IMG/VR virus record: IMGVR_UViG_3300045988_090210
Strand: one strand, 5' to 3'
Source: a virus
DNA length: 64,000 nucleotides
The notes under the pieces: model-generated
Told to the model about the DNA's origin: nothing
Database searches by the model: none
What the model saw: the letters and a program-made list of their open reading frames with translations, nothing else
Position numbers and translations under genes: made by a program
Part shown: piece by piece, positions 14,754-61,803 of the stretch
Layout: each line of letters opens with the position of its first letter
How positions within the stretch are numbered: the first letter of the stretch is position 1

Positions 14754-14829
14754 GGGAGGTTCATATAGTGGTCAAGTATGTACGACTTATAATCGTGTCA
14801 CAGGTGTTCGAATCACCTACCTCCTACCA
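14754..14829 (+). tRNA. tRNA-Ile with anticodon UAU and an encoded CCA end
   Basis: I folded this cloverleaf by hand. The acceptor is GGGAGGT/ACCTCCT (first pair G-U) and the D arm is ATAT/GTAT. The anticodon stem is TACGA/TCGTG with loop CTTATAA. The T arm is AGGTG-TTCGAAT-CACCT, followed by discriminator A and CCA. Confidence 0.8.
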
Positions 14830-15355
14830 GACCGCCTATTGGGGTTCTCGTGCGAAATATAAATAACGAAGTGGGATAATAAAGGTTGTAGAAGATGGGG
14901 GATGCGAAGCATCTTTCCAAATTCAAACCTCCCAACGGCTAAAATCAACTGACCCATAGTTGATGAAAGAGAACAAGGTCACATATCCCCATGAAAGTAG
15001 GATAGTGGGGCACACCAAGCAATCAAACATAGCCGAAGATGCGGAATGTGTGGTAGGGTGAAAGAGCTTTTGGCCAAAGCGTGTAGGTCATGTTTGATTG
15101 TGGAGAACGATAGCGCATGAGCTTGAGTTTTCCTTTGTATCCTTTCTGTTTTAGAAGGTGGCTCCTTCTATAATCCTCATACTCGCTACCTGTTGCCGTA
15201 GGTTGGATGAATAAAGGCGAGACTATATTGAACGAGGCTTCTCAAGGGTTGAGCCTATCAGCCCTATCCCAAAGCCATGTTCCCCATGGCATGGTTTACC
15301 TCCTATACTTCATAATATACTTCCATCACATGGCTCGAATTTGTTTAGAAAAAAC
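14830..15355 (+). ncRNA. Candidate large structured ncRNA (ROOL/GOLLD-like context)
   Basis: About 525 nt immediately 3' of the tRNA are ORF-free and relatively GC-rich. An 11-bp long-range helix pairs 15020-15030 with 15090-15100. Hairpins lie at 14901-14913 (GATGC-GAA-GCATC), 14944-14964, 15152-15170 and 15233-15256. The track ORF start at 15207 is an artefactual 5' extension of the recombinase gene. Confidence 0.4.
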
Positions 15356-15357
15356 TC

Positions 15358-15386
15358 TTGACAAGTTCGAGCCGTTGTGGTATCAT
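15358..15386 (+). promoter_or_regulatory. Sigma-A type promoter for the recombinase gene
   Basis: TTGACA at 15358-15363, 17 nt, TGgTATCAT ending at 15386. The GGCTCGAA/TTCGAGCC inverted repeat straddles the -35. Confidence 0.55.
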
Positions 15387-15413
15387 AAAGACAAATCAAA
15401 GGAGGCCAATAAA

Positions 15414-16253
15414 ATGATTGAGAGTTTTGTTAATTATATGAAAGCTGAGAAGATGTCTGAGAATACCATGCGTGGCTACACTAATCACATTAACCAAATG
15501 CTCAAGACCATTAACAAGCCTGAACAGGACATTACCTACCTTGACCTGATTGACTGGAAGGCTGGTATTGCTAATCAGGCCAGTGCAACGGTGGCCAATA
15601 AGGTTGCTGCTGTTCGGTCTTACTTTAAGTTTTTGACTGATGTTGGTGTGGTTGAGACTGACCCAAGCAAGAACCTCAAGCGCCCCAGCAACATCAAGAG
15701 TAAGGAAAAGCCCCGCATGACCGAGGAAGATGCAAGACAGCTTATCTCCTATGCTCGTACCCCTCGTGACAAGGCCATGTTCAGTTTCTTGCTTTCTACT
15801 GGTGTTCGGTTCTGTGAGATGGCCAATATCACCATTGATCAATATAAGAAGGCTATGGAGAACAACCGAGAGATTGAGTTGCCCGTAACCAAGGGTGATA
15901 AGGGCGGCAAGGTTTATATTAATCAGTCTACTGAACAGGCGATTGAGCGGTATTTGCGTCTGCGTGATGATGATTGCCCCTATCTGTTCGCTTCTTTCCA
16001 GAATCATCAACTAAGCGACAATAGCGTGTCTCAGACTATTAAATCTGCTGCTCGTAGGGCTGGATTGAGCTATTGGAATGAGCTTAGTTGCCATGGGTTG
16101 AGAGCCGGTTGTGCAACGATTATGAGTGATAAAGGTGTTCCAGTGGCCACTATTAGTAAGGTCTTACGTCATAGCTCGTTGGCTGTGACTACAAGATATA
16201 TCAAAGCAAATCAGGATAATGTCAATAATGCTACAGCATTGATGGAATTTTAA
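15414..16253 (+). CDS. Tyrosine recombinase (XerC/D-like, comparable to SPbeta YopP)
   Basis: ATG at 15414 follows AAAGGAGG. The N-terminal SAM-like domain reads FVNYMKAEKMSENTMRGY. The catalytic signature is TGVRFCEM, HGLRAGCAT and LRHSSLAVTTRY. Confidence 0.85.
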   Translation: MIESFVNYMKAEKMSENTMRGYTNHINQMLKTINKPEQDITYLDLIDWKAGIANQASATVANKVAAVRSYFKFLTDVGVVETDPSKNLKRPSNIKSKEKPRMTEEDARQLISYARTPRDKAMFSFLLSTGVRFCEMANITIDQYKKAMENNREIELPVTKGDKGGKVYINQSTEQAIERYLRLRDDDCPYLFASFQNHQLSDNSVSQTIKSAARRAGLSYWNELSCHGLRAGCATIMSDKGVPVATISKVLRHSSLAVTTRYIKANQDNVNNATALMEF

Positions 16254-39428: not shown

Positions 39429-40562
39429 GAACATTACTGCGCCCATTTGCTTCTTTTCTGCTAATCAGCGGGGTTACAATTATGTAGCTAACGGTGAAGG
39501 CTAAGTCTTAATGATATGCTAATACCGTGGGAATGTTTTATAAGGTAGTTTAATGAAAAAAGACATTTATGTAATAAAAAACAGAGTAAATAACATGGTT
39601 TATGTGGGGCAAGCAATAAATTCTGCCGAAAGATTTATCGCTCATTGTAAGCCAAGTTCTGCAAAACAAGACAAATCCATTATTGATAAAGCCATTCAAA
39701 AATACGGTGCCAATAATTTTTGGTTTGAAGTAATCGAACATCAGATTGAAGATTATAACGAACGAGAAAAATATTGGATAAAAAAACTGAATTCTTTAAC
39801 ACCAAATGGATATAACATACAGGCAGGAGGCGAAAATCCGCCTGTATATCATGGGGTTGACCATTCGCTGTCCACATTTGATAACATAGAGACGGTTAAT
39901 CTTATCAAGGACGATTTGAGGAATACTTGTTTGAGTTTGTCTGAAATAGCTAACAAGTATAATTCAAGTAAGAGAACAATAATGAGGATAAATCAAGGGT
40001 TACATTATGAATCTATTGATGATGTTTACCCTATTAGAAAAGAACCCTTGCAAAATGGCAAGCTATCAAATGGACAAATAGAAGAAATCATAGAGATTCT
40101 AAAATACACATACAGGCAATATAATGATATTGCTCGTCAGTATGAGGTATCTCCGTCAACTATAAAACAGATAAATTCTGGTGTTGTCCATTTTGACTCC
40201 AAAGAATCTTATCCCATTAGAAAATACAAAAATAGTGGCAAACCAAACTGTACTTATGCCCAAGTTACAGAAATTATCGATTTGCTAACTACTACAGATA
40301 TGTCTTGCAACCAAATTCATAAATGTTATAATGTCGATTTACAGACCATATATATGATAAAAAATGGTACTGCAAAAAGATATAAACGAGAAGGATATAA
40401 ATATCCTCTCAGAAAAAACAACCCTATAAAATAAGCCTGTATCGACTATCCCAGTGAATGGGAGTACATTTGCTATTGATACGCAAATGGAAAGAGAAGC
40501 ACTACAAATTTAATTTTGTAGCAAAATATAGTCAGTCCTTATAGAAATATAAGATGTCTACG
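39429..40562 (+). mobile_element. Group I intron in nrdD
   Basis: The internal guide CTGCGCCC (39437-39444) pairs with the 5' exon GGGU in P1 (with a U-G pair) and with the 3' exon GCAG in P10. P7 is GACTAT at 40444-40449 paired with ATAGTC at 40528-40533. The last intron base is G 40562. Joining the exons restores ...SNRQSG|AVGMPNV... Confidence 0.7.
39553..40434 (+). CDS. GIY-YIG homing endonuclease (intron-encoded)
   Basis: IYVIKNRVNNMVYVGQA ... RFIAH ... EREKYWIKKLNSLTPNGYN, followed by repeated helix-turn-helix-like C-terminal modules. Confidence 0.8.
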   Translation: MKKDIYVIKNRVNNMVYVGQAINSAERFIAHCKPSSAKQDKSIIDKAIQKYGANNFWFEVIEHQIEDYNEREKYWIKKLNSLTPNGYNIQAGGENPPVYHGVDHSLSTFDNIETVNLIKDDLRNTCLSLSEIANKYNSSKRTIMRINQGLHYESIDDVYPIRKEPLQNGKLSNGQIEEIIEILKYTYRQYNDIARQYEVSPSTIKQINSGVVHFDSKESYPIRKYKNSGKPNCTYAQVTEIIDLLTTTDMSCNQIHKCYNVDLQTIYMIKNGTAKRYKREGYKYPLRKNNPIK

Positions 40563-41963
40563 GCAGTAGGTATGCCCAATGTTCTAATTTGGGCTTATTA
40601 TTTCTGGAAGCACGATATTGAGAATGGGTACTATTTGAAAGACCCTGACACTTATCTACGTCAGTGTTTCCAAAAACTAATTTATCGTCTAAACCAGCCC
40701 TTCCTACGCATTGACCAAGCTAGCTTTACAAACGTAAGCATTTTTGACCGGCCTTATCTTGAAAGCCTGTTTGGCGGCATGGAGTTTCCTGATGGCACTT
40801 TCGCCATTGACCAGATTGAGGAAATGCTTGAATGTCAAAAGGTGTTTATGGAGGTTGTGAGTGACATTCGTGAAGAACAGATGTTCACTTATCCTGTGTT
40901 AACCTATTCTCTACTATATAAAGACGGTAAGTTCGTAGATGAGGACTTTGCTCGGTGGTGTAGCAATCACAATATTAAGTGGTCTGATAGTAATTTCTTC
41001 GTAAGTGACAATGTGGGCGTTTTGTCCAACTGTTGTCGTTTGCTCAGTGATACTAATAAGCTGGATGCTTTTATCAACTCTATTGGTGGCACAGCCCTAT
41101 CTGTCGGTTCTTGCCGTGTAAGCACTATCAATCTTGTTCGTATTGCTTATGAGAGCAAGATGAATAAGAAGAAGTATTTAGACATTCTGCGAGACAGGGT
41201 GTTGCTGGACTGCAAGGCACTAACCTCTATGCGTCATATCCTAAAGCGCAACATCGAAAAGGGCCTACTACCCAACTATCAAGATGGTGCTGTTGAGCTT
41301 GACAAGCAATTCTGTACCATTGGTGGTATTGGTATGTATGAGGTTATGGATTTGTTTAGCCTTATCAATACAGATGAGTTTGGTAACAAGTCTTATAGTG
41401 ATGAAGCTGTTGAGTTCGCCACTCAAATCCTTGACACCATGAACGATGTTAAAGACCATTTTGAGTGCGATTTTACCTTTAACATTGAGATGATTCCCGC
41501 TGAGAATTGTGCTGGTGTTATTTGCACTGCTGACAATCTACTATACGAGCAAAACAAGTATTTCATCTACTCTAACCAGTGGATCCCCCTTATGGAAAAG
41601 TGTACTATTCAAGAAAAGTGCCGTTTAGGTCATCTGTTTGATGCTAAATGTGGCGGTGGTTGTATTGCTCATATTGATATTGAGAACCGGTTCCCCAACG
41701 AAGAAGCCGCTTGGGATATGCTGAATTATGTGGCCAAACAGGGCGTAATTTACTTTGCTTTTACCACTAAGATTAACGTTTGTGAGGATAAACACGCTTT
41801 TATTGGTACTAAAGAGTGCCCCCAGTGTGGCAAGCCTGTGGCCGACCAATATGCTCGTGTGGTAGGGTTCTATACCCCTGTTTCTGGTTATCAGCGCATC
41901 CGCAAGAGCGAGTTCAACCAGCGCAAATGGTATGATGTTCTAAACAAGGATGGGATTATGTAA
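40563..41963 (+). CDS. nrdD: Anaerobic ribonucleoside-triphosphate reductase, exon 2
   Basis: C-terminal zinc ribbon CPQCG plus the glycyl-radical-type motif ARVVGFYTPV. Confidence 0.8.
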   Translation, partial: AVGMPNVLIWAYYFWKHDIENGYYLKDPDTYLRQCFQKLIYRLNQPFLRIDQASFTNVSIFDRPYLESLFGGMEFPDGTFAIDQIEEMLECQKVFMEVVSDIREEQMFTYPVLTYSLLYKDGKFVDEDFARWCSNHNIKWSDSNFFVSDNVGVLSNCCRLLSDTNKLDAFINSIGGTALSVGSCRVSTINLVRIAYESKMNKKKYLDILRDRVLLDCKALTSMRHILKRNIEKGLLPNYQDGAVELDKQFCTIGGIGMYEVMDLFSLINTDEFGNKSYSDEAVEFATQILDTMNDVKDHFECDFTFNIEMIPAENCAGVICTADNLLYEQNKYFIYSNQWIPLMEKCTIQEKCRLGHLFDAKCGGGCIAHIDIENRFPNEEAAWDMLNYVAKQGVIYFAFTTKINVCEDKHAFIGTKECPQCGKPVADQYARVVGFYTPVSGYQRIRKSEFNQRKWYDVLNKDGIM

Positions 41964-42860: not shown

Positions 42861-43057
42861 TGGTTGAACTTAGAAAATGGCCAACAGACACAGATTGGGC
42901 TTGGTGTAAAGAATGTTGCCTTAATACAGTAGGCAAGACCTCTACAACCCTACCAACAGAAGAATGGAAACGTAAGCTAATTGCAGCTGAACACAGCCCC
43001 CTAAGAGAGCTATGGTTTGGTATCAAAATGACCATTCCTTATTGGGTTTCCGTGCAT
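42857..43057 (+). CDS. ThyX-like (Thy1 family) flavin-dependent thymidylate synthase homologue, exon 1
   Basis: It ends ...AEHSPLRELWFGIKMTIPYWVSVH. The in-frame stop at 43058-43060 belongs to the intron. Confidence 0.6.
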
Positions 43058-44078
43058 TAACATAAAAGTGCCCTTACACAGTAATGTGTATTGAAAACTC
43101 CGTTAACTTGTAATTGCAAGGTGTGAAGTTGACTTTATAAGGTCGGTAAGGAAATGTACCGTTTGCAACTTTGCTAACAGGGGAAATCTAAGGTTGACAC
43201 TATGACAATCCTGTGCTATAATTAGAATGTCCAGAAGATATAAAGGAGGTGAAAATTTTGAAAAAAATAGATATTATTGGCAATGTTTACTCTTCCAATC
43301 ATTATGGAGACTTCATTGTAGAAAAAGAATTGTACCCACAAGGAACAAATGTTTATTATCAAATCCGTTTCTTAAGTACAGGAACAACAACTAAAGCTGA
43401 AAAGCATAATATAAAGAAAGGCTCAGTAGCAGATTGTTACGCTAAAACAATTTATGGCGTTGCTTGTCGTGGGCGTGCATCTTCTAAATACCCTGTGTTA
43501 AACAAAGTGGCTTTCAAACGTTGGTTGGCCATGTTGTCTCGTTGCTATAATAAAAACGATATTGGGTATAAGTCTTATGGTGCCAAGGGGTGTGTTGTTT
43601 CTGAAGATTGGCTTTGCTTTGAAAATTATGTGCGAGACATAATTAACATTAAAGGCTTCAACAAAGAAGAATATCTAAAGGGTATTATCCAGTTGGACAA
43701 GGATGTTAAGATTCCTGATAACAAAGAATATTCTGTTGACAAATGTATTTTTCTAAATGCTTCAGCCAACAAGAAAAATCAACCTTCAAAGCAAAGATAT
43801 TTTTATGCAATTTCGCCACAAGGCCAGCAATTTATATACAACAACGCCAATTTGTGTGCACAAGAACACGACTTAACCGCAAGAACCATCTTAAAATGCT
43901 TAAAAGGTCAATTCAAGCAACACAAAGGCTGGACATTCAAACTTGTAGTCTAACGACTATCTCGAAAGAGAGTAGGGCGATTATGAAACGAATTGCTCGA
44001 AAAGCGGAGAACCCATATATATGGGTTGTGATATAGTCTACTCCCCTAATAAATATCGGGAAACCGAGGGTATAAAGG
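43058..44078 (+). mobile_element. Group I intron in the ThyX-like gene
   Basis: GTGC at 43068-43071 pairs with the exon GCAU in P1 (with a U-G pair). The AAA immediately 5' of it pairs with the 3' exon UUU in P10. P7 is GACTAT at 43955-43960 paired with ATAGTC at 44033-44038. The last intron base is G 44078. Joining restores WVSVH|FVRHHIG. Confidence 0.65.
43249..43953 (+). CDS. Intron-encoded endonuclease-like protein (family not assigned)
   Basis: It has its own promoter (TTGACA ... TGcTATAAT) and an AAGGAGG ribosome-binding site. The likely start is TTG at 43258. The motif WLAMLSRCYNKNDIGYKSYGAKGCVVSEDW is common in phage proteins annotated as homing endonucleases. Confidence 0.5.
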   Translation: MKILKKIDIIGNVYSSNHYGDFIVEKELYPQGTNVYYQIRFLSTGTTTKAEKHNIKKGSVADCYAKTIYGVACRGRASSKYPVLNKVAFKRWLAMLSRCYNKNDIGYKSYGAKGCVVSEDWLCFENYVRDIINIKGFNKEEYLKGIIQLDKDVKIPDNKEYSVDKCIFLNASANKKNQPSKQRYFYAISPQGQQFIYNNANLCAQEHDLTARTILKCLKGQFKQHKGWTFKLVV

Positions 44079-46502: not shown

Positions 46503-48131
46503 TCATTTTAATAGATTTAATCTATACAATACAACTGCAAGTTGCCTACGAGTAACAGCACCGGTTGGATTAGTACCATCAAAGATACCCATATCACAAG
46601 CCTTATCCCATGCTAGTTCAAGTTCACCTTGAGCATCGGTCTTATCATTAGGCGTTTCAACAATATCATCGCTGGCATTATAAGGTAATATACCCGTGTT
46701 CACATACTTTATCACGTCTTCTCTAAAATCATCCATTGACTTACCATGTTTAGGCCACCAATGCCCCACATCAGCATGAGCACTAGCAATTCCCTTAATA
46801 TGTCCTTCTGCGTGTGAAAGCACAGTATTATTATCTATAGTTTTTTGCCCCAATTTATTTAATATATAAGCGCATGTAAACACTGCCTTACGATAAACAT
46901 TTTCAAAATAAGCTTGGTTTTCTTTTACATTATAAAGTAAATAAGACCCTTTACGCTTCTGCAAGGCATGGAGAGTACCAAGACCAACAATACCATCAGC
47001 CGTCAACCCTAGTTTCTTTTGAAATGCTAAAACAGCATTTTTTGTACCAGATCCAAAAATACCATCGATACCATTAGGATTATGCCCCCAAGCTTGTAAC
47101 TCCTGTTGAAGCAACTTTACAGCATAAATAGTATTATTAGAACTACCTTGGCTCAAATTCTTCCAGTTTACGTCAAGCAATCGAGTATTTAGAGGTTCAC
47201 ATACTTCACATCCAACATGAGTACTATTTCCCGTACCACCACAATGCCATGTTCGGATACCAATTGGCATCATTTGATAAATACCAGTATCGTCAATAAT
47301 AAATTCTGTTTCAGCCGCTGCACTTGTGCTATTCCAAGTTTTAATAAAAGCAGATGCTTTAGCGCCCGGCGTGCCTGTACTATGTTGCATATATCCAGTC
47401 TTAATCTTTTTCTCTTGTTTTTTATATCTAGGGTTATTTGTTAAAAAGGCTGGTTGAATAGTAAATCCTGTGTCTGTGGTAATAGTAGTCTCCTCCTGTT
47501 TTGGATCGGTCGTAGGCTGAGTAGTGATTTCATTACCTTTTTTTAAATATACTAAAATTAAATTCTGTGACTTGGAAATACCTTGCATCGTAGTCCCATC
47601 GCTATAAAAATTAACCTTACCTCCACCGTCACCCATGATAAATTCCGTCACGCCTTTGGCAAACATATAGTCTCTTAATTTTTCAGGCGTTTTAGCATCG
47701 GATGTTCCATCTTTACTTGCATACAATACCAAATTCTTACCTTTAATACCAATCCCCGTTCGGCCTCTCACCCCACCAACATCTTTATTATAAATAACAA
47801 GATTATTAGGATAAGCAGACCCATTCGCAATTAATGTGCAGCAAGTATAATAATTATCATATCCATCAGCTTCAGTGGGAATTCTACATTGACCAAAATC
47901 ATCAGGAGTGTTCCATCTAAAACCTCTACATACATATGGCGCAGACACTAAAACAACACCATCTTTTTTTAATGGACAAGTGGCTTTCCAAGACGTATTA
48001 TAAAAATTGCCTGTTACAGCATAATCACAACCAGTTTGCTTTACAATTTGTGATAAAGATAGCTTTTTAGAGTTGATATAAACTTCAATCTTTTTAATTT
48101 TATTAAAAGGAATATAAGAAATTCTTTCCAT
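46503..48131 (-). CDS. Multidomain endolysin
   Basis: Four parts are recognisable. A GDGGG-containing domain resembles phosphodiester glycosidases. Amidase_2-like motifs are HSTGTPGAKA...WHCGG...GCEVCEP. A PG_binding_1-like repeat reads IDGIFGSGTKNAVLAFQKKLGLTADGIVG. The C-terminal tail VTRRQLAVVLYRL resembles an SLH domain. Confidence 0.75.
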   Translation of the reverse strand: MERISYIPFNKIKKIEVYINSKKLSLSQIVKQTGCDYAVTGNFYNTSWKATCPLKKDGVVLVSAPYVCRGFRWNTPDDFGQCRIPTEADGYDNYYTCCTLIANGSAYPNNLVIYNKDVGGVRGRTGIGIKGKNLVLYASKDGTSDAKTPEKLRDYMFAKGVTEFIMGDGGGKVNFYSDGTTMQGISKSQNLILVYLKKGNEITTQPTTDPKQEETTITTDTGFTIQPAFLTNNPRYKKQEKKIKTGYMQHSTGTPGAKASAFIKTWNSTSAAAETEFIIDDTGIYQMMPIGIRTWHCGGTGNSTHVGCEVCEPLNTRLLDVNWKNLSQGSSNNTIYAVKLLQQELQAWGHNPNGIDGIFGSGTKNAVLAFQKKLGLTADGIVGLGTLHALQKRKGSYLLYNVKENQAYFENVYRKAVFTCAYILNKLGQKTIDNNTVLSHAEGHIKGIASAHADVGHWWPKHGKSMDDFREDVIKYVNTGILPYNASDDIVETPNDKTDAQGELELAWDKACDMGIFDGTNPTGAVTRRQLAVVLYRLNLLK

Positions 48132-56244: not shown

Positions 56245-56277
56245 AATAAAAAATAGAGGGCGTAAACTACGCCCTCT
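56245..56277 (-). terminator. Terminator-like hairpin overlapping the tape-measure stop codon
   Basis: On the minus strand, the AGAGGGCG-tagttta-CGCCCTCT stem-loop is followed by ATTTTTTA. Confidence 0.55.
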
Positions 56278-59200
56278 TATAAGCTCGTTGATAGGCCATT
56301 TGTTTAAGACCTGTAATCAACGTTTGTGCATCTCTTGCATTGGGCAGTGTAAGATTATCAATATTAAAAATATTACTCATATTACTTGTTATGGCGTTTG
56401 GATTAATTTTACCCCAACCCCACAGATTTCTGGTTACATCAGCAGGGATAACACCGTCACCTTGGTCAAGCACCCTTAACTCAGGCCCTTGTTCACCTAC
56501 TAAACTTAATCCACCAACAGCGTTTAATGTGCCACCCGCATATTTTTTGCCTTTTAAAGCTTTTATTGCAGTGGTTTTAGCTGTACTAGAACTACTATGG
56601 AACCCTTCTCTCATTTCCGCTTCTGTCCAACCACTACCACCAGTAGTTTTTGAGAAGTCAAAATAATAACCTTTACCACTTTGGGGTGCTGCAGATGTAT
56701 CAGTCTTCTTGGTACTCTTACTACCGTTCAAAGAAGCCATAATACTATTATATTTGTCCGCAAAAGTCTGAGCGTTCATTAATCGCTGTTCCCAATTCTT
56801 TTGCTCCAAATCAATACCCAATACTTGCTCAGCAATTAGCCGGTTTTGTTCTTCCGTATATTGATCTACAACACCAGACCATTCATCTTTATATTGATTC
56901 CATTGTTCAATTTGCGCATCAATACTGGCTGTAGCTTGGTCTTTGAGTTTATTTAAATTCTCTATCTCTTTACGGAGAGCTTCATCACGCTCATAAGCAT
57001 CAAGTTCAGCCTGAGCCGCAGATATGGCCTCAACGTCTTGCATATACTGGAATTGGCCATTAGAGAATACATAAAGCCCCTTGTCCTTGGCTTGAGCCAG
57101 ATTGTTGAGCAATTGTTCATATTGGATCTGCCGTTCAAGTTCGTCATTAGTGTCTTGTAGAGCTTGAATTTGGTCTTCATAGAATTTCTCTATTTCAGAT
57201 TTTTGTGTTTCAAGTTCATCTATTTCTTCTCTAATCTTTTGAACAACATAACTTGCCGCTATCTCATAATTGGATTTTTGAGCCTCGGCCGCTTTTTTAG
57301 CTTCTTCTTCTTGTTTAGATGCTAATTCTTCAGCCAACTTAGCACGACCACTGTAAATCTTTTCTTCATAACTATACATGTTCTGATTAATCTGATTTAC
57401 ATTAAGGCCATACTCCTTCATATGAGCCGTAGCGTTTGTTTTATATTGCTCCACAAGTTTCTCAAGTTGATTATAATAATCTTCTTGAGTAATTTTGCCC
57501 ATAGCAAGCAAATGGTCTAAATCTTTTTGTAAAGATTGGAAATTTTTAAGAGCTAAATCCGTAACAGACTTACTCCCAGAAGATGAAGATTTAGCTCCAC
57601 CAGAACCAGAAGAACCAGATACTATACCAACATCTCGTACATCATAGCCTTCAACAGAAGAAACATTTAATGCACGCCCAAGATCTCGCAACGCAGTTTG
57701 CGCCGCAATGCTAATTGAAGCAGCTTGGTTTAATTTTTCACGATTTGCTTGAGTTGGATTTATTGAATATTCAGTTAAAATTAATCTAGCTGTTGCTTGA
57801 TACCCTTTTGCGACAAGTTGTAATTGTTGTAAAGTTTTTTGTGCTTTGTCTTTAGCATCTAAATAAATCCGACCATTGGCACTTATAAAACCACTTACAG
57901 AATTAATAGCCTCGTTTTGCGCCAAATAATAACTATCACCAACTTGGGTGATATTGGCTGCCAGTTCTGGATATTTAGATTTAATTGCATCTACTTGCGC
58001 CGCATTAAGTTCAATTGAATTACCAAACTTTTCAGTATGTTGAGCAGCATCTTCATAAGCAGTTGCAAGACTATCAAGAGCATCACGAGCACTTGTAGAC
58101 TCATCACCCACGAGTTGGTGAGCTTGGGCTAATGTACCAAGTTTACTTGTAACTTCATCATATAGTTTTAAATCTTCATCTGTTAAACTATGATTAGTTT
58201 TAAGCTTTTCAGTTAATTCATTAGCCTGCTTAATAAGTTCTTGTTCATAGGCTTCACCAGTTTTATAAACTTCACCTTGAACTGTTTCAAATTGTACACC
58301 AAGAGCTTCTAATTCTTGCCTAGTTTTCTTAGAAGCATTCGGAATATAATTATCAAGATACTTTACAAGCTCTTCATAGGTTTCAAAACTCTGGCCTTGT
58401 AACCCACTATCAAATCTACCAGCATATTCCCCAGTAATACCAGAAACTTGAATTCTTTCACCAGTGACATATCCGCCTTTTAAGGATTGTTTGGCTTTCT
58501 TTTCAGATAACGTTTCAAGTTTATCTATCTGAGCTTGTAGCTCGTCATTCTCTTTCTCAAGAGCTTCTTTTTCATCTAAAATCTCTTGAGTGCGCTCATT
58601 CCAAGGCAAGTCACTGATTTCTTTAAGCCGCTCTTTATTAGTTTTAAGCTTGCCATTAGTATCGCTAATTTTTGTTTCAAGCTCTTCAAAAGATTTTCTA
58701 CTATCTTCGGTAGCTTTCCATAAAGCGCCACCAACAACTAAAACACTAGCAATGCCAAGAATAATAGGCAAGGTAATACTACCAGCCGCACCAACACCCG
58801 TAATAACTCCTGCTAGATTTTTAAATTGTTCAATACCAACCTTAAAAATGCCAAGTGCCTTAGTTAAAGATGTTGCGCCCCAGCCCAAACTAGTAAGTAG
58901 CACAATCTGTGTAACAATCTGACCAAGATCAGTGTTTGCTATCTGCAACAGGCCGTTAGCCAAGTCAAGAACGGCTTTGGCTAAATCGCTGCTGATAACA
59001 TTATTAGCAAAATCTTGAAATGTGGATTGAACTTGAGATAACTTAGCCTGAATAGACTCCATATATGCAGAGTTTTCACGCATCGCAGAGCCTTGAGAAT
59101 CAAGGGCTTTGTTGGTTGCGTCAACTGCATGGCCGAAGTTGTTCATTAAGGCCAAGAAATTGTTTAACTGTGTTGTACCCGCTATTGTAGTGGCAATATA

Positions 59201-59767
59201 CTTTTGACTGTTATTGTCAAGAGTATCCCACTTTTCAGCCAAACCAGCAAGCAAATCATAGCCACTTTTAAGTTGGCCGTTTTCATACATCTCAACACCA
59301 AGTTGTTCAAAGATTGTTGTTATTTTCTTGCCGTTAGATGAAGCATCATCTAGAACTTGAGCAAGGTTGGCCATAATAGCATTAAGGCCACGAGAAGCCT
59401 TGCTTGCGTTCTTGGTTTGCTCTGTGATTGCGGTCATGAGGCCGATAGTTTGTTCAAAACTGTTGTTCATACCAGCGGATGAAGAAGCAACTACCTTGAG
59501 GCCGGTCGCCAAATCGCCAGTGCCTACGGCAAAGTTGTTTGCTACTTCATTCAACGCATCAGCAATGTGCATAGCATTGCCTTCTACATCGCCAGTTGTT
59601 TTATTAAACGCTATTAACTGAGAAATTAAAAATTGTGCGGCATCGCCAGTAGAAATAGATTCATCTGCTACGTTTTGGAATATAGAGCTGACCTGTGCCA
59701 ATTGAGCAGCGTCTTTGTCATTAAATCCATTTTTACGGTATTCAGTCGCCGCACTAACCATCTCTGA
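56267..59767 (-). CDS. Tail tape measure protein, exon 2 (or the C-terminal 1166 aa if the gene is truly split)
   Basis: SEMVSAATEYRKNGFNDKDAAQLAQVS matches the TP901-type tape-measure core. Long coiled-coil regions and a hydrophobic central segment follow. There is no ribosome-binding site before the first ATG (59761). Confidence 0.75.
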   Translation of the reverse strand, partial: SEMVSAATEYRKNGFNDKDAAQLAQVSSIFQNVADESISTGDAAQFLISQLIAFNKTTGDVEGNAMHIADALNEVANNFAVGTGDLATGLKVVASSSAGMNNSFEQTIGLMTAITEQTKNASKASRGLNAIMANLAQVLDDASSNGKKITTIFEQLGVEMYENGQLKSGYDLLAGLAEKWDTLDNNSQKYIATTIAGTTQLNNFLALMNNFGHAVDATNKALDSQGSAMRENSAYMESIQAKLSQVQSTFQDFANNVISSDLAKAVLDLANGLLQIANTDLGQIVTQIVLLTSLGWGATSLTKALGIFKVGIEQFKNLAGVITGVGAAGSITLPIILGIASVLVVGGALWKATEDSRKSFEELETKISDTNGKLKTNKERLKEISDLPWNERTQEILDEKEALEKENDELQAQIDKLETLSEKKAKQSLKGGYVTGERIQVSGITGEYAGRFDSGLQGQSFETYEELVKYLDNYIPNASKKTRQELEALGVQFETVQGEVYKTGEAYEQELIKQANELTEKLKTNHSLTDEDLKLYDEVTSKLGTLAQAHQLVGDESTSARDALDSLATAYEDAAQHTEKFGNSIELNAAQVDAIKSKYPELAANITQVGDSYYLAQNEAINSVSGFISANGRIYLDAKDKAQKTLQQLQLVAKGYQATARLILTEYSINPTQANREKLNQAASISIAAQTALRDLGRALNVSSVEGYDVRDVGIVSGSSGSGGAKSSSSGSKSVTDLALKNFQSLQKDLDHLLAMGKITQEDYYNQLEKLVEQYKTNATAHMKEYGLNVNQINQNMYSYEEKIYSGRAKLAEELASKQEEEAKKAAEAQKSNYEIAASYVVQKIREEIDELETQKSEIEKFYEDQIQALQDTNDELERQIQYEQLLNNLAQAKDKGLYVFSNGQFQYMQDVEAISAAQAELDAYERDEALRKEIENLNKLKDQATASIDAQIEQWNQYKDEWSGVVDQYTEEQNRLIAEQVLGIDLEQKNWEQRLMNAQTFADKYNSIMASLNGSKSTKKTDTSAAPQSGKGYYFDFSKTTGGSGWTEAEMREGFHSSSSTAKTTAIKALKGKKYAGGTLNAVGGLSLVGEQGPELRVLDQGDGVIPADVTRNLWGWGKINPNAITSNMSNIFNIDNLTLPNARDAQTLITGLKQMAYQRAYKRA

Positions 59768-59777
59768 CGGTTAATTA

Positions 59778-60026
59778 TTAACGCTTAATCTTTTCTTCAA
59801 ATTCGATTGTGCCATTTTTAGATTCTTTACGTTCTTTAACAAAATTACGATAAGCATTGTCATATTCATCTTGCCGTTTAAATTGATTTCTGGTGCTTTG
59901 ACTACTTCCAGTTGACAGCACAAAAAACACAATTGTAAATAACCAAAACCCTAACGCCAATCCAATATTATTAGCCTGAAACCCCATAATAAAACACAAT
60001 ACAAACCAAATAATAGCAACAATCAT
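59778..60026 (-). CDS. 82-aa membrane protein encoded inside the tape-measure intervening sequence
   Basis: Strong GAAAGGAG ribosome-binding site, two hydrophobic helices and a charged C-terminus. It does not resemble an endonuclease. Confidence 0.6.
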   Translation of the reverse strand: MIVAIIWFVLCFIMGFQANNIGLALGFWLFTIVFFVLSTGSSQSTRNQFKRQDEYDNAYRNFVKERKESKNGTIEFEEKIKR

Positions 60027-60054
60027 ATTATATACTCCTTTCTAATGTGAATAC

Positions 60055-60083
60055 ATAATATCATATAAAAGATTAAATGTCAA
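60055..60083 (-). promoter_or_regulatory. Sigma-A promoter inside the intervening sequence, followed immediately by GTATTCACA
   Basis: Minus strand reads TTGACA, 17 nt, TGaTATTAT. GTATTCACA (60054..60046) follows immediately downstream. Confidence 0.55.
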
Positions 60084-60388
60084 TAATTTTTCCAAAGTTT
60101 TTCAGACTTTGCCTGAGTAATTCTTCACCCTATAATTGGAGGGCCGCTCTGTATACTCGATTGACACACCGCTCATCACGGCTTCGTGCCCAATCTGCCC
60201 TTTTTAACAGTACTTAGGGCTTTCGCCCATATACCATCCTTATCGTTTTAATGATTTCTCACATTCACACTTAGGCTTATCTCATCCTTATGTTGTAGTG
60301 ATAAGGCTCTTGAGGCTTTCAAGGGTTTAGGAGCTATTCTCGGTGCTGGTTTACCATCCCATCACCCCGGCTCAGACCGATTTGGTTT

Positions 60389-60718
60389 ACCGGTTCGCCC
60401 TACTGCCAGACCCATCTTTGATAACTTAGATACATAATCATCAAGGGAACTGCCAGATAAGTCAGATACTTTCTTAAATTCAGTTATGGAATTATCAAGC
60501 TCTAATACTTGACTTGCAAGCGAACTTATAATATCTATGGTTTTAGAGAATACCTCATTTGCTGAGTTAAAGTTAAGCTCTAAATCCTGAATATCTTTGC
60601 TTGCTTGCTTAACACTACTTGTGTCAAGGTCAATCTTGGCACCTTTTATTTTATTTAGTTGTTCTTGAATTTGTTTTGTTTGTAGATTAACGTCTACAAG
60701 TATTGAGTAGTTCGCCAT
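60389..60718 (-). CDS. Tail tape measure protein, exon 1 (110 codons)
   Basis: ...FKKVSDLSGSSLDDYVSKLSKMGLAVGRTG is a tape-measure N-terminal core. The track ORF continues 8 codons into the intervening sequence. Confidence 0.65.
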
Positions 60719-60731
60719 TCACTCACTCCTT

Positions 60732-61256
60732 TTATAGTGAATTTGGCTTGCCAATATGCTTGACTTTGATTTGGCTGTAAGCAATCAATATTGCATCACT
60801 TTGGTCGTCATTATTAAACTTACTACTATCAGACTTCCACACCAAATTAAGCCCAAACAAATCATTGGCTTTTTCTATTGATTTTCTTTTCATTTCGGCT
60901 CGTTTAGTACCATTTCTCGTTCCATCAAACAAGCCCATATGACTGCGCCACTGGCTTGGAATTAAAAACTCAATGGGTATATTAAACGAGGCCGCAACAC
61001 CATAAAAAAATCCTTGCACAGCGCCTAACTGCACAAGGATTTTAGGATTCTGCGCCTTTAAGGGCACATCTTCCATATATATCTTATCAGGATGATATTT
61101 GTTCAATATCTCTATTAGCTTAGGGGCTTGATTAACAGTGCGTTCACGCCAATCTTGTCCTTCAGACTTAATCACACCATAAGCTACTAGTTCTTTTCCA
61201 TCAAAGATACTCCAACCCGTGCTCTTAGTGGACGCATCAATTCCGCAAACCACCAT
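60732..61256 (-). CDS. RuvC-like Holliday junction resolvase
   Basis: VCGIDASTKSTGW ... IYMEDV ... DDQSDAILIAY supplies the catalytic D/E/D residues. Confidence 0.7.
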   Translation of the reverse strand: MVVCGIDASTKSTGWSIFDGKELVAYGVIKSEGQDWRERTVNQAPKLIEILNKYHPDKIYMEDVPLKAQNPKILVQLGAVQGFFYGVAASFNIPIEFLIPSQWRSHMGLFDGTRNGTKRAEMKRKSIEKANDLFGLNLVWKSDSSKFNNDDQSDAILIAYSQIKVKHIGKPNSL

Positions 61257-61266
61257 AAACTGTCTC

Positions 61267-61803
61267 CTAATCTTTTACAAAGAAAATGGCCAAGTTATGT
61301 CGGGTAAAATTTAACCCTTGTCTTCTCATGCCCTCTTCAAATAATTTTCTCATTCTATTTGGCCCAAGCCATTTAATAAGTGTATTCCATACATTGCGCT
61401 TTTTTGTCCATGCTTGACCTTTGAATCGTTTACTATTTTTAGCGTACCCCTCTTGATAGATAGCACCAGCTAATCCTTCATAGATAATATCGGCCAAATA
61501 TTCTTGTATTGGTTGACCATCTACAATAGAAGCATGATGATTACCAAAAGCCATCATCTTATCAGGGTCATAAGCCATTTCACCTGTTGCCATATCACCC
61601 GTAATATGTGTATTGGTATCCCACGCTTTTTTAAACTGGCCAGTTCTATCATATTCAATTGGTTCATATCCATCATAAACAATTTGCTGAACTAACTTTT
61701 CGTTTTCAGCTAAAATTTGTTTGACAACATAATCAACAGCCCCTTTTAATGCTGGCATAAGCATGGTTTTAACTTGAGCATCGTTCCTCGCATTACTTAC
61801 CAT
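61267..61803 (-). CDS. Tail-associated structural protein
   Basis: YEPIEYDRTGQFKKAW motif, as in HK97 gp10-like tail components. The assignment rests on position. Confidence 0.35.
   Translation of the reverse strand: MVSNARNDAQVKTMLMPALKGAVDYVVKQILAENEKLVQQIVYDGYEPIEYDRTGQFKKAWDTNTHITGDMATGEMAYDPDKMMAFGNHHASIVDGQPIQEYLADIIYEGLAGAIYQEGYAKNSKRFKGQAWTKKRNVWNTLIKWLGPNRMRKLFEEGMRRQGLNFTRHNLAIFFVKD

Follow-up and report, generated by a model that had tools for sequence, protein, structure and literature searches.

Introduction

In the group I introns of bacteriophage T4, an open reading frame (ORF) with its own promoter is looped out of the ribozyme, and in sunY, where the ORF lies 3' of the catalytic core, terminal pairings return the remote 3' splice site. 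These introns, found in td, nrdB and nrdD/sunY, were reportedly described as 'genes within genes' in work of Gott and colleagues from 1988 and of Michel and colleagues from 1992. The present study concerns a 64,000-nucleotide (nt) stretch of viral DNA, IMG/VR record IMGVR_UViG_3300045988_090210 (hereafter the window, meaning the whole stretch), in which a 621-nt element at 59768..60388 interrupts the gene for the tail tape measure and carries a promoter motif and a gene for a small membrane protein. An earlier note, made from the sequence without database searches, had proposed that this element is either an atypical group I intron or a moron by which the tape measure is genuinely split. Both parts of that proposal have known counterparts. 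The tape measure mediates the passage of DNA through the membrane, and HK97 gp15, a small membrane protein encoded by a moron, blocks DNA entry, with escape mutations mapping to the tape measure. A classical moron lies between genes and is usually accompanied by a terminator. Among introns, the IStrons are group I introns with non-endonuclease cargo (PMC10690162), and group I introns have been described in structural genes of the Bastillevirinae (PMC11878797) and in capsid and tail genes of Cluster J mycobacteriophages (PMC3706429).

Results and discussion

The tape-measure gene and its exon junction

The tape-measure N-terminus is encoded by ORF 60718..60362 (118 amino acids, aa) and the rest of the protein by ORF 59761..56267 (1164 aa), both on the minus strand, a division and a set of coordinates already given in the earlier note and confirmed here from the ORF list and the sequence. 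The gene and its insert are arranged as follows:

60389..60718, minus strand: tape-measure exon 1, 110 codons (M1..G110), 3' end ...ACCGGU, delimited by gap-free alignment to uninterrupted tape measures
59768..60388, minus strand: predicted group I intron, 621 nt, from A 60388 to the terminal guanosine (omega-G) 59768, structure supported by covariation in 8 and in 28 sequences
56267..59767, minus strand: tape-measure exon 2, 1166 codons plus stop, 5' end UCAGAG

The predicted spliced tape measure is 1276 aa long, with the insertion between codons G110 and S111. Joining GGU (60389) in frame to UCA (59767) gives ...GLAVGRTG|SEMVSAATEYRKNGF..., and the joined exon DNA across the predicted junction reads ...GGGCGAACCGGU|UCAGAGAUGGUU.... 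The joined product aligned without gaps to the uninterrupted tape measure of Enterocloster phage PMBT24 (...GLTVARTADEMVEAATEFKKM...), GRTG|SEMV at the junction falling opposite RTADEMV with zero gap, and the Pfam domain PhageMin_Tail crosses the junction at residues 100-307. When searched against phage genomes by tblastn, the joined product returned single unbroken alignments to tape measures, the best being to those of Enterocloster phages at ~40% identity. The exact junction is therefore directly established, and the expectation that this join would restore a normal tape measure is upheld by the alignment to PMBT24 and by the domain that spans it. Read-through of the unspliced message would end early, the exon 1 frame meeting a stop codon 26 nt inside the insert, and inspection of the sequence upstream of the ATG at 59761 revealed no Shine-Dalgarno or GGAGG-like site, as had been noticed before. 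A scan of IMG/VR for the ligated-junction DNA pattern gave one match, which was unrelated, and neither a second tape-measure gene nor an intron-less allele was seen in the protein-based and junction-pattern scans of that database.

A covarying ribozyme core

Structural alignments were made of 8 sequences and then of 28 distinct introns, with the window as coordinate reference. The helices placed in them are:

60367..60376, minus strand: guide UCUGA|GCCGG, forming P1 and P10, paired in 28/28
60393-89 with 60371-67, minus strand: P1, exon 1 CCGGU with GCCGG, U.G at the splice site in 28/28
60376-72 with 59767-63, minus strand: P10, UCUGA with exon 2 UCAGA, compensatory change at one position
60366-59 with 60349-42 (hairpin 60342..60366), minus strand: P2, GGUGAUGG / CCAGCACC, nearly invariant loop GAUGGUAAA
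60334-29 with 60150-46, minus strand: P3, GCUCcU with AGAGC, enclosing the P4-P6 domain (60146..60334)
60325-23 with 60191-89, minus strand: P4, CCC with GGG, invariant apart from clade D
60316-13 with 60200-197, minus strand: P5, GCCU with GGGC, G-C versus U-A
60306-00 with 60244-38, minus strand: P5a, double changes
about 60261-52, minus strand: P5b, hairpin capped by a GAAA tetraloop, double changes
about 60228-17, minus strand: P5c, hairpin, UAUGG...CCUAAG, resembling the 11-nt tetraloop receptor, double changes
60188-86 with 60167-65, minus strand: P6
60182-79 with 60171-68, minus strand: P6a, double changes
60160 and 60158-54 with 60119-14, minus strand: P7, U60160-(bulged C)-GAGUA with UACUCA
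60143-40 with 60131-28, minus strand: P8, CCCU with AGGG; J8/7 is UGAAGAAU
60111-06 with 60098-93, minus strand: P9, CAAAGU with ACUUUG, stem changing by clade with pairing kept
60113-12 with 59770-69, minus strand: P9.0, GG with CC just 5' of the omega-G, paired in 25/28

The core from P3 to P9, which had escaped the first inspection of the sequence, was thus located: P2, P3, P4, P5/5a/5b/5c, P6/6a, P7, P8, P9 and P9.0 could all be placed in canonical order, with the P3/P7 pseudoknot among the features recovered, and the RNA structure is established directly by covariation across the 28 homologous introns. In the 8-sequence alignment 97.1% of cells held standard pairs and 19 pairs had changed on both sides, compared with only 0-2 doubly changed pairs in slid controls in which partners were shifted by 1-3 columns, and the covariation score was unmatched in 500 shuffles. 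Compensatory or wobble-compatible changes were found among the 28 introns in every core helix but P4. Five of the eight P2 pairs had changed on both sides in the smaller set, and wholly different P2 stems occur in other clades (UAUGUACA/UGUGCAUA and UAUGUUGC/GCAGCAUA); one pair of P3 is U-A in nine sequences and C-G in 18, with perfect correlation; and the P9 stem variants CAAAG, AAGUA and AAGGG are each still paired. In P7 the closing pair is U-A (18) or C-G (9) and the third pair G-C (7), C-G (2) or A-U (18), with the bulged nucleotide lying just 5' of a G-C pair that is kept in 27/28. The resulting guanosine-binding site, U-A, bulged C and G-C in the window and C-G, bulged A and G-C in other clades, appears canonical at the level of sequence and secondary structure.

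The exon boundaries behave as group I splicing requires. In all 28 versions U is the last nucleotide of the 5' exon and G that of the intron, as had been noted for the window, and the single guide thought to pair with both exon ends does so in every version, no relative with the same split lacking these pairings. P1 changes at two positions, with CCGGU/GCCGG in the window, GCGGU/GCCGC in clade B and CUGGU/GCCAG in L066, and in P10 the guide UCUGA faces UCAGA in 27 versions, the central pair being swapped (UCAGA/UCUGA) in L058 of clade D. Because selection for exon-guide pairing makes sense only if the exons are ligated, the covariation of the guide with both exons implies splicing.

These data bear directly on the possibility that the tape measure is split by a promoter-plus-ORF moron and made as two polypeptides with no RNA splicing. 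Such an arrangement would account for an insert with its own promoter and gene, and for the failure of Rfam to see an intron here. It is contradicted by the covarying group I fold that occupies ~300 nt 5' of the promoter, by the covariation of the guide with both exons and by a junction that reproduces uninterrupted homologues exactly; moreover, the second part would have no ribosome-binding site, and no start codon precedes the S and E codons with which it opens. We consider a truly split gene very improbable. The element at 60388..59768 is instead, with high probability, a group I intron that belongs to a divergent subfamily not modelled before and is spliced to give one tape measure. By all structural criteria tested its architecture is canonical, so that the description 'atypical' given to it earlier holds for its sequence and not for its fold.

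Some results weigh against the intron interpretation. A search with the Rfam group I model RF00028, which the earlier note had put forward as a check, gave zero match in 59000-61500 even at E<=10, and the intron was likewise not matched in a whole-window Rfam scan at the gathering threshold. The model was also silent on the homologous intron in L038, and the same model scores neighbouring introns at 43-101 bits. P4 consists of only three Watson-Crick pairs (invariant C-G) followed by invariant U.U, U.U and G.A, and in L058 the P4 strands form CCAGU/AUUGG instead. Splicing activity itself is predicted from these comparisons, and self-splicing without the help of proteins is likewise a prediction. 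We regard the RF00028 miss as a limit of the model and not as a defining biochemical feature.

Two other assignments of the core were rejected. A first core, obtained from a MAFFT alignment with Rfam-recognised relatives, had GCUC/GGGC as P4, CCCUU/AAGGG as P5 and no P3, and was dropped because GC(U/C)C covaries with AG(A/G)GC, i.e. P3, in the larger set. An alternative P4, GCCuCAA/UUGGGC, is incompatible with P5a, which covariation has proven, and with the replacement of C by A in clade C. As a separate observation, the segment 60300-60320 (minus strand), which reads UUGAAAGCCU(C/A/U)AAGAG between P4/P5 and P5a with one variable position among the members read closely, could pair alternatively (CUUGA/UCAAG or GCCuCAA/UUGGGC), competing with the assigned P4/P5.

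Recurrence in gut phages

The intron recurs across a gut-phage lineage. It was found at the same tape-measure codon in about 40 IMG/VR contigs of 47-108 kilobases (kb) by two motif scans and a protein-based scan, and with further copies from look-ups of cargo contexts a total of 28 distinct complete intron sequences was assembled, the versions coming from gut-phage contigs of ~80-100 kb, a recurrence that, with its compensatory base changes, is far beyond chance. The exact 22-nt core motif had zero match in a collection of bacterial and archaeal genomes. Diverged clades share 70-92% nt identity with the window in two core ribozyme segments, with the exception of the clade-D 3' segment (51%), while the flanking exons are about 55-71% identical and the cargo is unalignable.

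A core more conserved than the coding sequence around it is not what would be expected of a decaying, non-splicing intron that is tolerated since some other mechanism supplies a functional tape measure. The short P4, the lack of an Rfam match and the lack of a homing endonuclease to maintain the intron fit decay; the compensatory nature of the stem changes, and the fact that no intron-less allele or second tape-measure gene was seen, oppose it. We judge decay highly unlikely, and an intron still under selection for its fold remains the favoured interpretation.

A blastn search against phage genomes matched 60299..60196 to three further elements: the annotated capsid-gene intron of Bacillus phage SP-15 (joined coding sequence plus endonuclease), the interval that separates the 'portal protein' halves in Bacillus phage LY2, and a stretch of a Clostridioides phage. 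The LY2 and SP-15 elements score 85 and 38 bits, respectively, with the Rfam group I model. Alignment to LY2 showed the shared piece of ~100 nt to be an insertion within P5 (a P5 extension) with ~76-77% identity. RAGATH-18 matches of 70.9 and 30.3 bits occur near intron 3' ends in LY2 (L002:3371-4613) and in Clostridioides phage ES-S-0173-01 (L003:4650-4731), and the LY2 intron also holds ORFs annotated as transposases; both introns look like IStrons inside phage structural genes. In another relative, L038 (IMG/VR contig 3300013383_000026; 7600-9700, minus strand), the tape-measure gene contains four or more group I introns in a stretch of ~2 kb, of which Rfam recognises three (43-101 bits); one of the exons measures just 28 nt, and a 384-aa ORF lies in one of the introns.

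A closing helix, a putative promoter and a looped-out gene

The 3' half of the intron contains four further features:

60067..60088, minus strand: 5' strand of helix P9.x, AAUUAUUGAC-A-UUUAAUCUUUU, overlapping the -35 box and spacer
59773..59794, minus strand: 3' strand of P9.x, AAAAGAUUAAG-C-GUUAAUAAUU, comprising the last cargo codons, the stop codon and a few nt beyond
60055..60083, minus strand: putative internal sigma-70/sigA-type promoter, TTGACA 60083-78, 17-nt spacer, TG-n-TATTAT, -10 at 60060-55
59778..60038, minus strand: cargo gene, ribosome-binding site GGAG 60038-35, ORF 60026..59778, 82 aa

P9.x comprises ~21 base pairs, and 5 nt separate its 3' strand from the 3' splice site. 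Its duplex energy of -20.2 kcal/mol was equalled by none of 300 shuffles, for which the value was -9.8 ± 2.3, and the helix is present in both the minimum-free-energy and the centroid folds of the 3' domain. Helices of 11-20 base pairs with quite different sequences occupy the same relative position in other clades, for example AAAUUAUCUAAUAU/AUAUUAGAUAAUUU, in which a C-G pair becomes U-A in L073; a point against the generality of this helix is that the one tested in clade B was not significant. Pairing of P9.x places the cargo in the loop of a peripheral helix.

The promoter that had been proposed from the sequence, TTGACA-17-TATTAT, proved to be the best match in a 3-kb scan (11/12 plus the extended -10 TG). 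TTGAC(A/T)-17-TAnnnT was found in 28/28 unique introns, with a TG one base 5' of the -10 box in the clades read by eye. Inspection by eye showed TTGACA (TTGACT in clade D) and TGnTAnnnT to be constant even where their pairing partners differ in sequence; this conservation of the motif amid changing pairings argues that it is retained for promoter function and not for RNA structure alone. An operator-like 'GTATTCACA' box had also been suggested and is indeed present, yet it is no inverted repeat and was seen in the window's own intron clade only, so that nothing marks it as an operator.

The reading of this motif as a promoter has points against it too: it partly overlaps helices P9 and P9.x, so that some of its conservation could be structural and not transcriptional, and no terminator was found 3' of the cargo ORF in a scan of the region. 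The 'promoter' might accordingly be the DNA image of P9/P9.x within a genuine group I intron, the ORF being translated from the pre-mRNA or from the excised intron. The overlap of the -35 box and spacer with the P9.x 5' strand, and in other clades also with the P9 3' strand, would be expected on that account. The constancy of both boxes while the surrounding paired sequence changes completely would not, nor would the spacing of 17 in 28/28 versions, the position of the -10 box outside the helix in the window's clade, or the GACA of the clade C -35 box, which no pairing found explains. We hold this explanation to be unlikely, and use of the motif as a promoter is the prediction that best fits its conservation. 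A separate idea, that the ribosome-binding site and AUG are hidden in the pre-mRNA and free in the promoter transcript, as in T4 td, was rejected (unpaired probability 0.53 versus 0.46 mean, with no consistent direction).

Taken as a group I intron with a promoter-driven cargo gene, the element suggests the following mechanism. On transcription of the tail operon, the 5' ~300 nt of the intron would fold into the ribozyme core, P1-P9. The stretch after P9 would pair with the stretch before the 3' end as P9.x, looping out the ~270-nt cargo, and P9.x, P9.0 and P10 together would deliver exon 2 and the terminal G to the core. Splicing, initiated by guanosine, would then join ...ACCGGU to UCAGAG..., yielding one 1276-aa tape measure. 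The looped-out segment would act as an independent gene, with an extended -10 promoter that host RNA polymerase could read without phage factors; transcripts from this promoter lack the ribozyme and the P9.x 5' strand and would serve as cargo mRNA only.

The cargo and its possible role

The cargo stop codon lies 10 nt before 59768, and the 82-aa protein has two hydrophobic segments (about residues 2-17 and 21-38) followed by a charged, K/E-rich C-terminal tail, which agrees with the initial description of a two-segment membrane protein in place of an endonuclease. Ratios of nonsynonymous to synonymous substitution (dN/dS) among six cargo alleles, over all 82 codons, were 0.06-0.18, with dS up to 0.88; at constant length, these values establish that the ORF is real and under purifying selection. 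Close homologues form 36 protein clusters at 69-91% identity, nearly all of 80-85 aa, and a profile search of the family recovered 143 clusters, nearly all of 63-96 aa. At the same position in other intron clades there are different small proteins of 63-92 aa, with an N-terminal hydrophobic segment and a charged tail, which often end in a motif such as KYDNDWGYI or NEWGLDDDWRWGKL. Some relatives have arrays of cargo genes, three ORFs in L069, L072 and L077 and two in L079, L089, L074 and L085; the tandem genes share only a C-terminal motif of the ...YDN(D/E)WG... type, and such introns reach ~1066 nt. In the contexts inspected, from human gut metagenomes, the cargo always lay between tape-measure exon 1 and the remainder, downstream of tail-tube and RuvC-like genes.

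No endonuclease gene was found at the cargo position in the intron versions whose cargo was examined. In the window the sole intron ORF is the 82-aa membrane protein, which has no nuclease domain (LAGLIDADG, GIY-YIG, HNH etc.). Nor does the intron hold an ORF of the IStron type, i.e. an IS200/605 or IS607 transposase or TnpB with a guide RNA at the intron 3' end, and Rfam scans detected no RAGATH-18 or related RNA in the window. A 300-aa ORF starting MFPNGKRYIGITS, GIY-YIG-like by eye only, was noticed a few hundred nt 3' of the cargo intron in L066.

A host-type promoter, a membrane location, extreme diversity, and copy-number variation with linkage to the tape measure together suggest that the cargo acts at the cell envelope in conflicts between phage and host or among phages, and superinfection exclusion may, by analogy, be one such role. 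Because the protein is hypervariable, present in one to three copies and tightly linked to the tape measure, we tentatively picture it as a membrane-acting accessory protein, made early or constitutively, that might for example block the injection of DNA by competing phages. Searches in Pfam, PHROGs, NCBIfam and PADLOC yielded nothing significant, and the lack of detectable relatives of known function counts against this proposal. Lysis timing is another conceivable task. The small size, the one or two transmembrane segments and the highly charged C-terminal tail would suit a holin or antiholin-like protein, and size and hydrophobic segments do fit a holin; against this, the candidate amidase-type endolysin (46503-48131) does not adjoin the cargo gene and lies ~12 kb away, a host-type consensus promoter is ill-suited to late lysis timing, relatives carry one to three extremely divergent copies, and no holin family match was obtained in Pfam, PHROGs or NCBIfam. 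We consider a lysis function unlikely and an exclusion or host-takeover factor the better guess.

A broader and equally speculative possibility is that the intron, once a selfish homing element, has become a 'safe harbour' for a hypervariable, promoter-driven membrane-protein cassette in an essential tail gene, with the cargo serving in phage-phage competition. If so, what maintains the intron would be the advantage conferred by its cargo and the linkage to the tape measure instead of homing, and the cassette would represent a new functional class of viral intron cargo.

Other elements in the window

A ThyX-like gene (...YWVSVH | FVRHHIGCNHYVQSQR...) is interrupted by a second group I intron (43057-44075, plus strand). 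Rfam recognises this intron in part, at 43177-43235; its 234-aa ORF (43249-43953) encodes an I-HmuI NUMOD-like domain, and the canonical elements AACGACUA and GAUAUAGUCU lie at 43945-44040. The 56-nt stretch 44021-44076 gave matches of 91-96% to 210 phage records of the Herelleviridae type. A probable third group I intron (39438-40553, plus strand) lies in the anaerobic ribonucleotide reductase gene nrdD and contains a GIY-YIG ORF (39553-40434). Its 3' core includes UCGACUAUCCC...GGGAGUAC, with AAAUAUAGUC at 40524-40533, and the Rfam gathering scan missed the intron; the match of exon 2 of this gene (40554-41963) to the Pfam NRDD profile is confined to positions 103-562.

At 14754-16253 (plus strand) a tRNA-Ile gene (anticodon TAT) precedes the gene of a tyrosine recombinase/integrase with Phage_integrase and SAM-like domains. 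The phage may be temperate, as an integrase beside a tRNA suggests, or may use a Xer-like resolvase, a distinction that matters for any action of the cargo in the lysogenic state. Judged by its tape measure, the closest relative in culture is PMBT24, a virulent phage (PMC11035940).

Significance and comparison with known systems

A whole group I subfamily, common in human-gut phage contigs, is missed by the standard Rfam model, and the tape-measure genes concerned will consequently be mis-annotated as two genes and a 'hypothetical protein'. The range of intron cargo is extended past endonucleases and transposases to a putatively promoter-driven accessory cassette that varies in sequence and copy number among close relatives, which suggests that ribozymes allow the cost-free insertion of accessory genes into essential genes. 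The promoter motif, in doubling as a strand of the helix that would position the 3' splice site, would be one sequence acting at both the DNA and the RNA level. The system is tractable through a related cultured phage-host pair, that of Enterocloster bolteae phage PMBT24 (PMC11035940). Searching of the full-text literature found no report of a group I intron with a promoter-driven cassette for a small membrane protein, although absence there is not proof.

The T4 introns resemble that of the window in being group I introns in a phage gene with a looped-out ORF that has its own promoter and, as in sunY, a remote 3' splice site. They differ in their cargo, which in the window is a small membrane protein (one to three in relatives) and not a homing endonuclease, and in that the window's putative promoter is of the host-type extended -10 kind and doubles as a strand of the closing helix, the host gene being the tail tape measure. 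The IStron-like introns of the LY2 portal gene and of ES-S-0173-01 are likewise group I introns of Firmicutes or their phages; cargo other than an endonuclease lies 3' of their core, and they share the P5 extension, but the LY2 cargo is annotated as transposases, is joined by a RAGATH-18 RNA, and sits in an intron that RF00028 recognises. The introns of SP-15, the Bastillevirinae and Cluster J share with the present one a location in late virion genes and splicing during infection, predicted for the window, and some have no endonuclease; unlike the window's, the introns of SP-15 and Cluster J that were checked carry either an endonuclease or nothing.

Morons of the HK97 gp15 type offer a parallel to the cargo, with a promoter and a small membrane-protein gene set among late tail genes and expressed independently, although a functional similarity to gp15 is at present a hypothesis drawn from that likeness. 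Whereas a classical moron stands between genes, the unit in the window lies inside an intron within a gene, where the ribozyme would make it harmless, and it has the promoter and ORF of a moron, the terminator not having been found. Introns in structural genes, intron ORFs that bear promoters and non-endonuclease cargo are thus all known individually; what appears unusual in the present locus is a membrane protein as cargo, together with a promoter that would serve as the strand of a helix.

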